From an uncultured Chloroflexia bacterium (lineage in GTDB: Bacteria > Chloroflexota > Anaerolineae > JAAYZQ01): a stretch of DNA of 64,000 nucleotides. Both the position numbers and the translations under genes were made by a program. Each line of letters begins with the position of its first letter. Position 1 is the first letter of the stretch. The notes under the pieces were generated by a model. The model did not search any database and was not told the origin of the DNA. It saw only the letters and a program-made list of their open reading frames with translations. Where the stretch lies: positions 57,494 through 121,493 of the forward strand of contig CAVOXA010000004.1 in assembly GCA_963700285.1 (NCBI GenBank), given 5' to 3'. Shown here one piece after another: positions 1-12,216 of this stretch.

Positions 1-66
1 CACTTGTTTCCGGTTGGGACCCCAGGGGACTTTCTGGGTTGGTATCGGCAGCATTTGATGGAAGGT

Positions 67-132
67 GAGCCTGCTCAGCCAGGGGACCAAGGCGAACAGG
101 CCGAAATCGCTCGCTCTACACAGTAGTTGGCC
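67..132 (+). other. attI-like recombination site, copy A
   Basis: ...CAGGCCGAAATCGCTCGCTCTACA-CAGTA-GTTGGCC. Aligns with copies ending at 1133, 5037 and 12185. GTTGGCC is complementary to GGCCAAC (665-671) at the end of the next gene. Confidence 0.7.
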
Positions 133-157
133 GGCGAGAAGGGGGAATACGAAGTAC

Positions 158-694
158 ATGGATCCAAAGATCGTCATCAGGAGCGAGACCGGTGCCGATA
201 TAGGCGCGATAACCGAGGTGACCGTCGCCGCGTTCAACACCCTGGAGATCAGCAATCACACCGAGCAGTTCATCATCGAGGCACTACGCGCCGCCAAGGC
301 CCTCTCGGTATCGCTCGTCGCAGAACTCGATGGCTGTGTAGTCGGTCATATTGCCTTCTCTCCTGTGACCATTTCAGACGGCACTCGGAACTGGTACGGC
401 CTTGGACCTGTGTCGGTGTTGCCGGCATACCAGCGGCAGGGCATTGGCAAAGCCCTGATAAGGGAAGGGCTGTCACGGCTGAGAGATATGAACGCTCAAG
501 GATGTTGTCTCGTGGGACATCCGGATTACTACAGGAGATTCGGGTTCGAGAACACGTCGGGACTTGTGCACGAGGAAGTGCCCCAGGAGGTCTTTTTCGC
601 TCTGTCTTTCGACGGGCATACTCCGCAGGGTGCTGTCACTTTCCACGAAGGATTTAGAACGGATGGCCAACCAGGGGGTACAGGCGACGCTTGA
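158..694 (+). CDS. GNAT family N-acetyltransferase (YhbS-like), gene cassette
   Basis: VVGHIAFSPV, LGPVSVLPAYQRQGIGKALI and LVGHPDYYRRFGF motifs; GGGGGA RBS upstream. Confidence 0.9.
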   Translation: MDPKIVIRSETGADIGAITEVTVAAFNTLEISNHTEQFIIEALRAAKALSVSLVAELDGCVVGHIAFSPVTISDGTRNWYGLGPVSVLPAYQRQGIGKALIREGLSRLRDMNAQGCCLVGHPDYYRRFGFENTSGLVHEEVPQEVFFALSFDGHTPQGAVTFHEGFRTDGQPGGTGDA

Positions 695-695
695 C
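665..695 (+). other. truncated attC (left arm only)
   Basis: GGCCAAC-CAGGGGGTACAGGCGACGC resembles an attC left half; the right half is replaced by a thioesterase fragment. Confidence 0.5.
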
Positions 696-7721: not shown

Positions 7722-10700
7722 ATGCGTACTGATACCCAGCCGCTGCTAGTCCAGGTGCAGGCAGTCACTGCCGCTGCAACGCCCCTCGGCGAAGTGCCGG
7801 TTGAAGTGGTGAGGCTCGAACCGGATCGCTTCGACGTGGTGGCAAAGGCTGTGACCCGGGGGGACGGCATCGCGGTGCTCGAGCTCGCTCCCGACCTCTG
7901 GGGACAGCGGCTGCTGGCCAGGCTGGCGGGTGAGGCGGAACAGGGAGTCGTGCTTTCCCGTGCGGAACTGGACGGTGAGGTGGCCGCGATCCTGACGGTA
8001 ACCGCCGCCGGCGGGGTGGACGCGAGTCGGATGGTACTGCTTGCCGACCACCTGGTGGCCACCAGGCGAGTGCGCGCCGACGACCTGGCCAGCGACCTGG
8101 CCGCACCGTCGCCCGACAGCTTTGTGCGGCTCCTGCCCGCCGCCGAGCGGGCGCGCCTGCTGGAGGACTTTGCGCGCGGTCTCCGGCGTAAGGGCACCGG
8201 CGACGAGGTGGCCGATCTGTACCTGGTGGATCCGGACGCATTGCGCAGGGGCAGGGTGAAGCTGCTGCCGATCCGCGAACTGCCGGAAAAGTTTACCCCC
8301 CGGCCGAGCCCGCTGATCGACCTCGACCAGTTCCTCAAGCCGGGCCTGGGCTGGGAGATCTTTCCGTGGGCGCTGCCCGACGACCAGTCCTACCGCGACT
8401 ACCTGCGCTCGGTCTTTGTCCTGTTCGCCCAACAACAGAAGTGGGGGGTCGGCGCGGATCCCGCTACCTACGGACACATCGTCGAGCGCCAGATGCAGCG
8501 ACGGTTCTTCCAGGACTTCCGAACCGCGAACCGCACTGAGGTGCCGCTCAATCGGCTCCTGGTGCCCATCGTCACCTCGATCCTGACCGCACCCACGGGT
8601 TCAGGCTTTGGGTTCGGCCGTGCCACGGCGGCGTTGCCGGCGCAGGGTACGCAGCCCGACCGGGTGCATCTGGACGCCCTGCTGGCGCTCGCCCCGGTCG
8701 AGGTCCAGGAGTTCGCGAACAGGTACCGCCTGCCCCTCACCGAACCGGACAGCACCACTTCGACGCCGGTCCAGCTCAACGTCTACACGCTGTCGAGGGC
8801 GCTCAGCGACACCGCGCAGGGACCGCCGGAGCCACGCGAGAACGTCATCGACCCGCAACTTCCGGGCGAGGAGGGCAAGCCCATCCTCTGGAAGGAGGTG
8901 GTGGGCTCGGCGCCGTTCTTCCTCCGCTTCGACGAGTGGCTCGCCCGGCAGCAGCCCTTCTTCGCCGAGAACCTGTTCGCGCTGCGCACCCAAGTCACCG
9001 GTGTGGCCAAGGGTACGTGGCTCACCGAGGCGCGCAAAAAGTTCCTGGAGTACCACAAGGGATTGCCTGGCACCCAGAGCCTGACGCCCTACCACGGTTA
9101 CTTCGGATCGATGGACGAGGTGCATCGATCCGCCACCTTCCTGCTGGCCTACGGCGCGGCCGACGCCAAGCTGGTCGAGCTCGTCCAGGCCATCGACAAG
9201 AGTCAGTTCGCCACCGCTGCGCGGCTCGCCGACGAGGCTGAGCGGCTACTGAACGCGGCCGTACCGAGCCCGCACTCCGGGGAGGACTGGGAACCCGAAC
9301 TCAGCGTCGGCAACTTCCCCCGTCCGCTCAGCCTGGCCAAGCGCCGCAAGGCCAAGGTCGCGAACATCACGCAGCTCACCGGGACCAGCGGCACCTACCT
9401 GCCGGACGGCCTTGAGCGGTTCTTCGAGTTGGCTCGGCCCGAGGACCTCTGGCTGGACGTGGTGCATTTCCGGATCGCCCGCGACCAGGCGACGCGCCTT
9501 CGGGTCTACCAGCTCAGGTTCGTGTTGCCGATGCTCCGGGCCACGGTGCGCTCCGGGTTGGGGGACATCCCGGGGGCGGTGGACATCCTGGCCGGGGTGA
9601 CCGGCTTCTACATCGGCATCGGGATGCTCGGCACCCCGGCCGGCATGGTGAAGCATCCCGACGCGATCGCGGCGCACACCCGGGTGGTGGCCGGCCGACT
9701 GCGCTGGAGTGATCAGCTTGGGTGATCGTCCGTACACCGCGCGCCTGATGTACGACGACGAGCGGCAGCTCGACGGGCCGTTCTCACTGACGCCCCAGTC
9801 GCGCAGCGGGTACGAGGTCCTCAAACCCGATCCTCCGCTGCTCCACCCGCTCGAGGAGCGGTATGCACGTATCGTGCAGGCCGACGCCCTGCTTGCCTGG
9901 GGAGAGGCCCTCTACCGCTCCGACGATGCGGCCAGTCTGGAGCGGGCCCGCGAACTGTACAAGGCTGTGGTGTTTCTGCACGGCAAAGACCCCCGAACCA
10001 GCGCGTACCGTCCGTTCCAACTGGAGCTGCCCTGGTTCGGCCTGGTCGAGAACCCGCGGGTTCGCAACCAGCTCGATCGGGCCCGGCTTGCCCTCCAGCA
10101 GATGGAGGCGGGACTCAACTTCTACGGCTACAACGACGAAGCAGTGCCCACCCTGCGGTACGATACCGCTGGTCGACGCCGCCCAACGGTGGGCGACCGG
10201 CGCCAAGTCCGCCCAGACCGACTACCTGGCCTACCTCGGCCGCGTCGAGCAGCTCGACCTGGACCTGCTGGCCGCCAAGGCGCAGGAGCGCAGGGCGCGA
10301 GCGACGGTGGCCATCGCAGTCGAGCAGGTCGAGATCGCCAAGGCTGGCGTGGTCGTGGCCAAGAAGCTCGTCTCCGACGTCGAGAAGCTGATCGCAGCGA
10401 AACAGTCGGAGATTGAGGACGCCAACTCACTGTTCAGCCAGTTCAAGGACTATTTCAGCGGCATGAAGTCGAGCGTCAGCTCGATGGTGGACATCGGAAA
10501 GTCCACCTCCGAGGGCTGGACGTCGCTCAGCACCAGCGGCGTCGGTGATGCCCTGGGGCTGGGGGAGCAGGGCGCTGGCACGGGCGCGGCGGGCGCCAGC
10601 TCCCAGAGCGTCGGGTTGGGAAGCGCCATGGGTGGTCTCGCGGTCGTCGGCGGGTTCGCCGCTTTCGCGGTGCTTAGCACGACGACGCTGCAGGGGATGG

Positions 10701-12052
10701 CGGACGCAGCCGTCAAGCGCGACGGGGAGTTGATGGCGCTGAAGAACGAGGCGTTGCCGGCGGCCCAGGCGGCGGTTCGCGTCCAGGAGCGCAACGTGGC
10801 CATTGCCGAACTGCAGGGAGAGATCGCGGCCACCGACTTTGCCTACGCCCGCGACCTGGTCAACTACCAGAACGAACGCTTCCTGAACCGCGACTTCTGG
10901 GACGCGCTCGCCGGCGTGGCACGCAGGTCGCTACACCGTTACCTCGACCTGGCCGGTCAGGCCGCGTGGTTCGCCGAACGGGCCCTTGCCTACCGGCTCG
11001 CCACCCCGGTCCGCGTGATCCGGATCGGCTATTTCGACCCGAGGATGCGCGATGTCGGCGGCGTCGATCGGTTGGCACTGGACCTCGCCGAACTCGAGGC
11101 ACTGCGACTCGGTGCGGCCCGCGTGACCGTCCCACTGGCGCGCACCTATTCGCTGGCCCGGGACCTGCCGCTGGCCTTCGGGCAACTGAAGGCCACCGCC
11201 CGTTGCACCTTCACCCTGACCGACGACGACCTGGTGGCCGCCCATCCGGGCACGTTCGCGCACCGGATCCGGGCGGTCGACGTGGCCGTCGACACCCCGG
11301 GCACGGTGGTGCCGGCCCGCGGCATCCTGACCAACAGTGGCTTCTCGCTGCTCCGGCGGGCGTCCGGGGCCGCAAGGGTGCCGCTGCTCCGGTTCGCCGA
11401 CGCGTACCCGGTGAGCGAGTTCCGGCTCCGGAGCGACCTGGCGCTGTACGGCCTGCCCGGGGAACAGTTGCTGCCCTTCGAGGGTGCCGCCTTCACCACA
11501 ACCTGGACCCTCGAGCTTCCCGAGGCCGCGAATCCGGTGGGTCTGCATCGCGTCACCGACGTCCGCATCACCTTCGACCTTCAGGCGGCCTACGAGGTGC
11601 CTGCGGGGGCTGCGGGCGTGCAGCCACAGCCGGCCAGCCGCTCCATGTTCGTCTCCGCGCTGGCGGTGGATGCCACCGGCCTGGCCACGCTGCGCAACGC
11701 CGCCAAGCCGAAGGCCAGTGTTCGCTTCGACCTGGACCAGCTCGCCCTGCCGCCCGGTGCGGTGATCACGAACCTCGCCGTGATGCTGCCGGGCGTGGTG
11801 GGTGGGACGGTTGGGGCGAAGCTGCGCTTCGGCAACGGTGCGGCCAAGTCGTTCCAGATAGCCGACGGATTGGCGATGTCCAACGCCGGCGTGCTCAGCG
11901 ACGGGAACCCCGCGAACGCGCTCCCGCTCAATGCCGCCGCAACCGGGCCGGCCTCGCGGCCGGCGACCCTGACGATCACCAAAGGCAGCGACGCGTCCCG
12001 GCTGGCCAAGGCTCGAGACGTCCTGTTATGGGTCGAGTACAGCGTCCCTTAG
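7722..12052 (+). CDS. large (~1440 aa) protein with Tc toxin subunit A-like C-terminus; two +1 frameshifts near 9718 and 10165
   Basis: Joined ORFs 7677-9725, 9709-10416 and 9863-12052. TcA-like motifs ERFLNRDFWDAL...YLDLA...AERALAY, QLKATARCTFTL, HPG...RIRAV, LLPFEG, WTLELP, TDVRI. Coiled coil plus Gly/Ala-rich hydrophobic segment; GAGGAGG RBS. Confidence 0.7.
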
Positions 12053-12117
12053 CAGCACTCCGAGCGCCAGGTATCGTCCTCTGAGAAAGCGCCTGTCTTT
12101 CGACGCTATGCTACCCG

Positions 12118-12185
12118 GAACTTGCTCAGTTTGGGATACCCCAGGCAGATAGGCCGAAAGAGTTCGGGCTACACAGGAGTCAGGC
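12118..12185 (+). other. attI-like recombination site, copy D
   Basis: GAACTTGCTCAGTTTGGGATACCCCAGGCAGATAGGCCGAAAGAGTTCGGGCTACA-CAGGA-GTCAGGC. Confidence 0.65.
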
Positions 12186-12216
12186 GGCGGCAACGCACTG
12201 GCTGACGGAGGCGACA

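Follow-up and report, generated by a model that had tools for sequence, protein, structure and literature searches.

Four integron attachment sites without an integrase, probably stacked by repeated insertion at a thioesterase-gene hot spot in an uncultured Chloroflexota bacterium

A 64,000-nucleotide stretch of the genome of an uncultured Chloroflexia bacterium (GenBank assembly GCA_963700285.1, contig CAVOXA010000004.1, positions 57,494 to 121,493 of the forward strand), referred to here as the window, carries four copies (A to D) of a motif that we identify as the integron attachment site attI, with no intact integron integrase gene (intI) nearby. The 36-bp segments by which a preliminary description of this DNA had recognized the copies end at 132, 1133, 5037 and 12185, as quoted there, and agree pairwise at 22-26 of 36 bases. 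The motif had been put at ~65 bp; it does recur, but its homology extends over ~100 bp in B and C, as in two further copies elsewhere in the genome (E and F), and A and D keep only the right-hand ~70-90 bp. Copies B, E and F have an additional ~120 bp in common, including a sigma-70-type promoter. The cores are GTTGGCC in A, GTTAGGC in B, CTTGGGC in C and GTCAGGC in D, so the GTT core originally described holds for A and B, whereas C, D, E and F deviate from it. The complementarity between core and the R'' box of the following cassette site (attC), reported for A to C, is exact for A (7/7, GTTGGCC/GGCCAAC, at 665) and B (9/9, 1777-1785) and imperfect for C (5/7, 5529); D has no attC.

The window opens within the 3' end of a PIN-domain toxin gene (1-126, plus strand, as are all features below unless marked otherwise), part of an AbrB/MazE-PIN toxin-antitoxin pair that begins upstream of the window and is also present in a related genome (G019, contig C265, 84.5%). 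The toxin frame passes through attI A (62-132, crossover 126/127) and its stop codon lies at the crossover; the left part of the site and the cassette promoter (Pc) are missing. This region corresponds to the G019 arrangement minus ~530 bp, the order there being thioesterase, antitoxin, PIN toxin, a junction scar, thioesterase start, promoter and attI. A GNAT acetyltransferase cassette gene (158-694) follows A, with the left half of an attC (665-692) whose R'' box is the exact complement of core A and whose remainder is lost. Next come codons 1-36 of the thioesterase gene discussed below as a hot spot (687-794, minus strand), a promoter-like site belonging to that gene (820-848, minus) and a ~77-bp intI relic (859-935, minus), in which the ribosome-binding site and first four codons are fused to a 53-bp internal piece of the gene. 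The Pc-type promoter of copy B (939-967) is homologous to the promoter beside intact intI genes and precedes the full-length attI B (1035-1133, crossover 1127/1128). The array of B consists of a SnoaL-like cassette gene (1209-1637), an attC (1779-1850, folding z -4.8), a RibD C-terminal-domain cassette gene (1902-2492), an attC (2508-2571, z -3.4), IS21-family remnants comprising istB and transposase pieces (2723-4083, minus), a cassette open reading frame (ORF) with no family match (4169-4621) and a third attC (4680-4757, z -4.3).

A second type of promoter module (4761-4934), made up of a thioesterase-promoter remnant and a promoter at 4854-4882, leads into attI C (4940-5037), in which the crossover G is altered; in genomes G016 and G019 the same module comes after the 5' part of the thioesterase gene. 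Copy C is followed by a DUF4440/SnoaL cassette gene (5100-5516), a degenerate attC (5529-5648, z -0.8), a DUF1801-type gene fragment and two VOC/glyoxalase-family genes with no attC found (5727-7280), and a further thioesterase-promoter remnant with a piece of an antitoxin gene that is repeated upstream of the window (7328-7467, unstranded, as are the repeats below). Between the array of C and attI D lies a large gene in several frames (7722-12052), with a promoter-like site at 7518-7546; its last piece matches the C-terminal TcB-binding domain of Tc toxin TcA (PF18276, E 9e-26). A 35-bp flank (12078-12112), 89% identical to the left side of a thioesterase junction scar in G020 (E 7e-7), runs into attI D (12094-12185), which has no Pc. 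After D comes a membrane-protein gene remnant (12217-12564) ending in a multi-copy repeat (12555-12725), of which there are dozens of copies genome-wide and which is inserted after this remnant. Farther on, low-complexity C-rich tandem repeats (13900-14660) lie between an SPFH gene and a pyruvate phosphate dikinase-like gene, both named by eye.

A promoter scan gave 12 promoter-like sites against 2.3 ± 1.5 in shuffled sequence, among them 939-967 and 4854-4882; the consensus promoters noted earlier for B and C are therefore present as predictions, and none were found for A and D. A weight-matrix scan of the whole window, with a training set that includes the window's own attC, found five attC left halves, all before 5530 and none downstream of D. 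The description of each copy as the head of its own small array thus fits B, with three attC, and C, with one degenerate attC, but not A, which precedes one cassette with a cut attC, or D, which precedes none. The earlier idea of four insertion points, each with its own expression, is not supported either: a Pc is present at B and C alone, GTT is retained in just A and B, and no attC comes after D. Rfam searches of positions 1-15000 gave three weak matches, none near its gathering score. Public sequencing runs contain small shares of the region, with short near-identical contigs in three DNA runs; in one RNA run, three pieces lie shortly downstream of promoters B and C, a position that is no proof of transcription. 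Elsewhere in the genome, three attC left halves lie among small genes (C2:5873-14108, minus), where no attI or intI match was found.

The window motifs are attI sites of the type found beside intact intI in relatives. A profile of the six genome copies, searched against 30 intI loci from 60 relatives (intI being defined by the TIGR02249 cut-off of 265 bits), matched upstream of intI and on the opposite strand in two of the 30, in G045 (E 2.5e-17) and G001 (E 1.2e-12), both of which were later incorporated in the attI model. The third match reached only E 0.44, and the remaining loci have other attI types or run to a contig edge. A pattern scan of GTDB returned seven records (five Anaerolineae-type, one Chloroflexia and one Phycisphaerae), three of them sites already counted; the four new sites are one complete integron (L093, with an IntI of 492 bits) and three with broken intI. 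These records point to Chloroflexota, probably Anaerolineae, as the host group. From metagenomes, 120 of about 130 sites were taken, and the 103 that are non-redundant are the basis of our counts. Of the 39 with at least 1.2 kb of upstream sequence, four adjoin a full intI. The search pattern ends four bases before the crossover, so that GTT lies outside it, and GTT stands at the predicted crossover in 74 of the 103. At 25 sites an attC was found, and at 16 of these the core agrees with the first one; shuffling gave a mean of 5.2, with 0 of 20000 shuffles reaching 16. Furthermore, one allele pair (L108 and L127) differs by a single cassette exactly at G|TT, which fixes the crossover directly. 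The motif does contain a short internal palindrome, which would suit an attC arm, the end of a miniature inverted-repeat transposable element or an operator. That reading is refuted by the fixed place beside intI, the GTT core, the core complementarity, the cassette step at G|TT and the lack of an attC-like fold (bottom-strand folding z of -0.1 to -0.8 for motifs A to D, with no attC-like long hairpin), and we give it practically no credence. The attI identity first proposed from the window alone is thus borne out, homologues standing beside intI elsewhere and ahead of attC-bounded cassettes with complementary cores. Binding by IntI and attI x attC recombination at the window sites are predicted.

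The attI pattern had 0 matches in viral contigs, and a second attI family, which lies beside other intI genes, gave only weak cross-matches to B and E in this genome. Members of this second family also occur without an integrase or with a truncated intI (L226:2340-2459 and L240:3623-3739; G011), twice in one genome, and one copy heads four attC beside the thioesterase locus. At two sites (L079:4670-7130 in G014 and L104:488-1370) a group II intron, oriented like the cassettes, splits the attI core between its bases 6 and 7; known attC-associated introns mostly have the opposite orientation, with same-direction attC cases reported (PMC7923331).

A profile built from the four window copies found two more in the 7.05-Mb genome, E (C15:37989, E 3e-12) and F (C6:16553, E 6e-12), the next match being only E 4.7. 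A profile of 94 metagenome sites, which came from a pattern search whose pattern was partly designed on the window copies, recovered 6/6 genome copies (E 5e-7 to 9e-24; next match E 0.29). The six copies are 57-73% alike, each is closer to some foreign site (70-94%), and a single clade, as in-genome duplication would produce, was marginally rejected using 70-bp sites (approximately unbiased test, p-AU 0.047). The copies are of old standing and resemble foreign sites more closely than they do one another. What is likely a seventh, decayed platform lies at C7:78287-78449 (minus), where a promoter-module match (E 3.5e-11) is followed by a weak attI match (E 0.29).

In keeping with the earlier statement that no integrase neighbours the motifs, no intI above the cut-off was found in this genome, which is 89% complete with 6.5% contamination; beyond the relic in the window there is only a 55-residue fragment on C6. 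The attI model matches 14 of 23 genomes of the family (12 of the 21 not used in building the model), seven of which have two to six copies, and outside the family it matches 1 of 38, one that contributed to the model. An intI above the cut-off occurs in four family genomes, and only G001 among them also has the motif, its gene carrying one frame break. These assemblies are 71-95% complete and absence of intI from them is not proof, but the local picture at the 39 metagenome sites is independent of assembly completeness: four have a full intI, 15 a relic, 12 a Pc without a tblastn match and eight no Pc, and several of the 12 show decayed first intI codons by eye. Integrase-less attI copies are the rule in the family. 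Two intI genes lie head to tail at one locus (L025/L037, G017:C73).

Copy B is an ordinary integron in collapsed form, retaining a Pc and a relic of intI, a point that the preliminary description overlooked together with the thioesterase-gene hot spot that the stacking follows. The 53-bp internal piece of the relic scores 58 against 34 for the best of 1000 shuffles, whereas the 27-bp start piece, at 30, is by itself not above shuffles. The same relic is found in G005 and at locus L145, and the B platform is 82% identical to that of the complete integron L093 over 225 bp. For copy C an intI relic is unproven; no intact intI was found beside a C-type promoter in the loci examined, the nearest case being a weak match (E 2e-4) beside the intI fragment on C6.

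Given that intI is so often broken, alleles of these platforms in relatives bear on whether arrays change after the lesion. Loci L108 and L127 are 99.75% identical over 2822 bp, and in both intI is cut at codon 139; L127 has an extra ~880-bp cassette at G|TT with an exactly complementary attC, followed by the first cassette of L108. Differing first cassettes are also seen among alleles lacking intI codons ~15-165 (L130, L171 and L102), among alleles lacking codons ~16-297 (L112, L213 and L182) and among B-type relic alleles (B itself, G005 and L145). Exact core matches occur at relic or intI-less sites as well (L106, L123, L127 and L145). The simplest reading of these differences suggests that IntI acted in trans after the lesion. 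The main rival to trans action is homologous recombination with intact integrons, from which the same pattern can result. The earlier proposal of an integrase acting in trans thus gains indirect support from relatives, but not for this genome itself. Xanthomonas strains with the same intI lesion reportedly have the same array in most cases, a finding attributed to Gillings in 2005.

The stacking itself is not peculiar to this assembly, as same-strand attI pairs 1.8-4.8 kb apart occur five times in four other genomes (G005, G009, G019 twice and G022) and tandem pairs are also seen in metagenome contigs; promoter+attI modules have indeed accumulated, as was first suggested. In the region of the window the thioesterase gene is present as two whole genes upstream, as the 5' fragment at 687-794 and as promoter remnants at ~4760 and ~7340. 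In five relatives, 5' fragments of this gene end near codon 61 at a common ~60-bp scar, and 14 such junction scars were found in five genomes and one metagenome contig, eight of them outside the training set. In G011 a gene for a 571-aa large serine recombinase ends at a matching junction, and the two junctions of that genome combined form an inverted repeat (15/20, other centres giving 2-8). Inverted repeats of this kind are known from the attP sites of serine integrases. Between scars lie toxin-antitoxin pairs, nothing or, at L145, a B-type platform with one cassette; this platform is 94% identical to B and is flanked by two thioesterase starts with a scar. The interval that contains the stack here measures 22.8 kb, with thioesterase copies also inverted, and 6.3 kb in the congener G001, where it has no attI. 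The repeated thioesterase starts and scars, together with the serine integrase of G011, make accretion of integrative elements the likely source of the stack. Treating the junction scar as a dif-like site, or as a homologue of attC or attI, was dropped, as the profiles gave no cross-matches.

Several further observations concern this and a similar region. Upstream of the window, between the two whole thioesterase copies (L011:10630-16150), lie a recA-like gene, a LexA-box-like palindrome, and polymerase-accessory and dnaE2-like genes that we take to be of the imuABC type. At L011:7500-8814 (minus) an inverted copy of the C-type promoter precedes whole DUF1801 and RibD-domain genes without an attI, and may mark an inversion of the region. 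In a second hot spot (C6:6000-30000, L009 and L010), fragments of a single large gene recur in alternation with toxin-antitoxin pairs and cassettes; it also holds attI copy F and the decayed intI fragment with its C-type promoter.

We consider it fairly probable that the window holds four attI of one Chloroflexota integron lineage that have lost their integrase and were stacked by repeated element integration into the thioesterase gene, and that the intact ones still accept cassettes through an integrase supplied in trans. On this account intI would have been deleted often and independently while Pc and attI persisted. The platforms would ride, like the toxin-antitoxin pairs, in an accessory slot of serine-integrase elements inserting near thioesterase codon 61; loss of the element body would restore the target, and repeated cycles would build a tandem stack. 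Deletions at a later stage would have cost A and D their promoters and erased most junction scars, and IntI from another locus or a passing element would place attC circles into attI B and possibly A. Copy B is a likely working unit, its Pc transcribing the first cassettes and its attI taking up circles when IntI is present, whereas C, with a promoter and an altered crossover base, is likely an expression platform only. Copy A would be read through from the toxin-antitoxin promoter, and D is likely dead. Where two equal attI1 flank a gene, IntI1 excises it at >97% (PMC12901181); a stack would therefore be expected to persist only if IntI is rare or the copies have diverged, both of which hold here, and the lack of a resident integrase and the divergence between copies would protect it from collapse. 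Accretion followed by deletion is a better reading of the locus than a purpose-built multi-attI device.

A number of points weigh against this account. No intact intI that could act in trans was found in the genome, and the slightly higher conservation of the attI core region than of the relic between B and G005 (0.85 vs 0.74) is weak evidence of selection. The allele pairs could stem from homologous recombination over the ~600 bp of common platform, and one first cassette is common to several different intI lesions, which fits either trans action or homologous recombination. The link to a serine integrase is drawn from one genome, G011; a close homologue of its enzyme was not found in this genome or in viral contigs, and only one other genome of 23 has a candidate, at 31%. 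This genome keeps a single 24-bp scar word (C4:50397-50420, E 0.14, weak), no read or contig from public runs spans the stack, and the test against in-genome duplication was marginal. Finally, thioesterase sequence lies upstream at only 1/120 metagenome sites (most contigs being short), and copies E and F lie elsewhere with no thioesterase shown; the hot spot therefore explains this stack but not all copies.

The strongest competing explanation is that the copies are dead: genuine attI sites left over from decayed integrons and brought together at a hot spot, with arrays no longer altered by IntI and cassette differences arising by homologous recombination with intact integrons. In its favour, the cores of C, D, E and F deviate from GTT, no Pc is present at A or D, A is followed by a cut attC and C by a degenerate one, no intact intI was found in the genome, and intI pseudogenes are common, making up about a third of intI genes (PMC2426708). 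Against it stand two broken platforms, 99.75% identical, that differ cleanly by a single cassette at G|TT, and exact core matches at relic or intI-less sites; in Xanthomonas, moreover, the same lesion usually comes with the same array (10.1101/2025.06.18.660453), unlike here. We therefore regard this explanation as unlikely, though a serious contender.

It is more doubtful still that IntI itself builds the stack, attI or Pc+attI moving into arrays within a cassette of the delta-attI type. Copy C does start 4 bp after an attC, the ORF at A ends exactly at the crossover, an attC left half lies shortly before attI at L178 and at three genome sites (G005, G007 and G013), and mobility of delta-attI cassettes is on record for class 1 and 2 integrons (PMC12901181). 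Nevertheless, B and C begin with thioesterase sequence and no cassette core, the bases past the attC crossover at C do not continue a conserved GTT target in relatives, and A is a thioesterase-linked platform minus ~530 bp, its ORF being the downstream member of a toxin-antitoxin pair. That several strains were joined in a chimeric assembly might be suspected from the 6.5% contamination, the many apparent frameshifts in the genome and the lack of a public contig across the stack, but four other genomes, as well as metagenome contigs, have tandem pairs too, and copies 57-73% alike are too diverged for strain alleles, which leaves a chimera very improbable.

By definition the locus is a CALIN (clustered attC sites without an integron-integrase), with at least two attC and no intI nearby: our own scan gives three well-folded attC, one degenerate and one cut. 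It is not a complete integron, as only a relic and no intact intI lies beside attI. Like the CALINs of Cury et al. 2016 (PMC4889954), it is a cassette cluster without a nearby intI, but it differs in keeping identified attI and Pc, stacked platforms and visible intI remnants of <100 bp. The only attI that IntegronFinder detects are exact matches to those of classes 1-3, and intI pseudogenes were recorded near 15/279 CALINs (PMC4889954); platforms such as these would therefore be missed. Integrons of Xanthomonas with inactivated intI show, as here, repeated lineage-wide loss of intI with persistence of arrays, and CALINs can be mobilised in trans (10.1101/2025.06.18.660453). In contrast to what is described there, the same lesion is accompanied here by different first cassettes, and the platforms lie in tandem and at several loci.

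Delta-attI cassettes of class 1 and 2 integrons have an extra, often truncated attI in the array right after an ORF, a form that A resembles; they are functional with IntI1, and in one case a full attI1 lies on both sides (PMC12901181). As described there, most of them are remnants of 14-18 nt, in mobile integrons with intI still present, whereas the sites here are 70-100 bp long, 57-73% alike, two with their own Pc, chromosomal and without intI. The ORF at A runs directly into a truncated attI, and at D ~40 bp separate gene end and site; the ORF of A follows an antitoxin gene and promoter, and no attI or attC was found upstream of it in L011. Cis-mobilizable elements (CIMEs) and site-specific accretion (PMC7563491) offer a parallel in integrase-less, decayed tandem elements at one target gene, down to micro-elements. 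The present case differs in that the target lies inside the thioesterase gene, a large serine recombinase is the likely integrase, and integron platforms are among the cargo. Repeated att junctions at the target are clear in five relatives; here there are only repeated thioesterase starts and one weak scar word. At attG secondary sites and single attC lacking integron-integrase (SALINs; 10.1101/2022.09.11.507474), cassettes likewise lie away from intI, but the sites here are full homologues of the lineage attI with Pc and not incidental genomic sites such as those reported. Integrase decay, extra truncated attI in arrays and tandem accretion are thus each already known. In an incomplete coverage of the literature, no description came to light of multiple attI that are full, diverged and promoter-bearing and stand stacked in the absence of intI, nor of accreting elements that carry integron platforms as cargo.

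Expression from a Pc is confined to the first cassettes behind it, and a resident integrase carries a cost and can make tandem sites collapse. Several integrase-less platforms would therefore give more expressed slots at low risk of rearrangement. A wider idea, which we put forward tentatively and with less confidence than the account of the stack, is that of satellite integrons: the lineage would keep promoter and attI apart from the integrase, spread these platforms through serine-integrase elements, stack several as separately expressed entry points and load them by a rare, shared or passing IntI. The analysis provides an attI profile and its crossover for a phylum in which attI sites go unannotated by standard tools, and natural allele pairs with which to ask if CALINs retain activity in trans. 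For most CALINs, no intI pseudogene is seen in the data given by Cury et al. (PMC4889954). If the idea of satellite integrons is true, one site-specific system would supply another with its docking sites, and among CALINs there would be many live platforms, with attI that current tools are unable to recognize.

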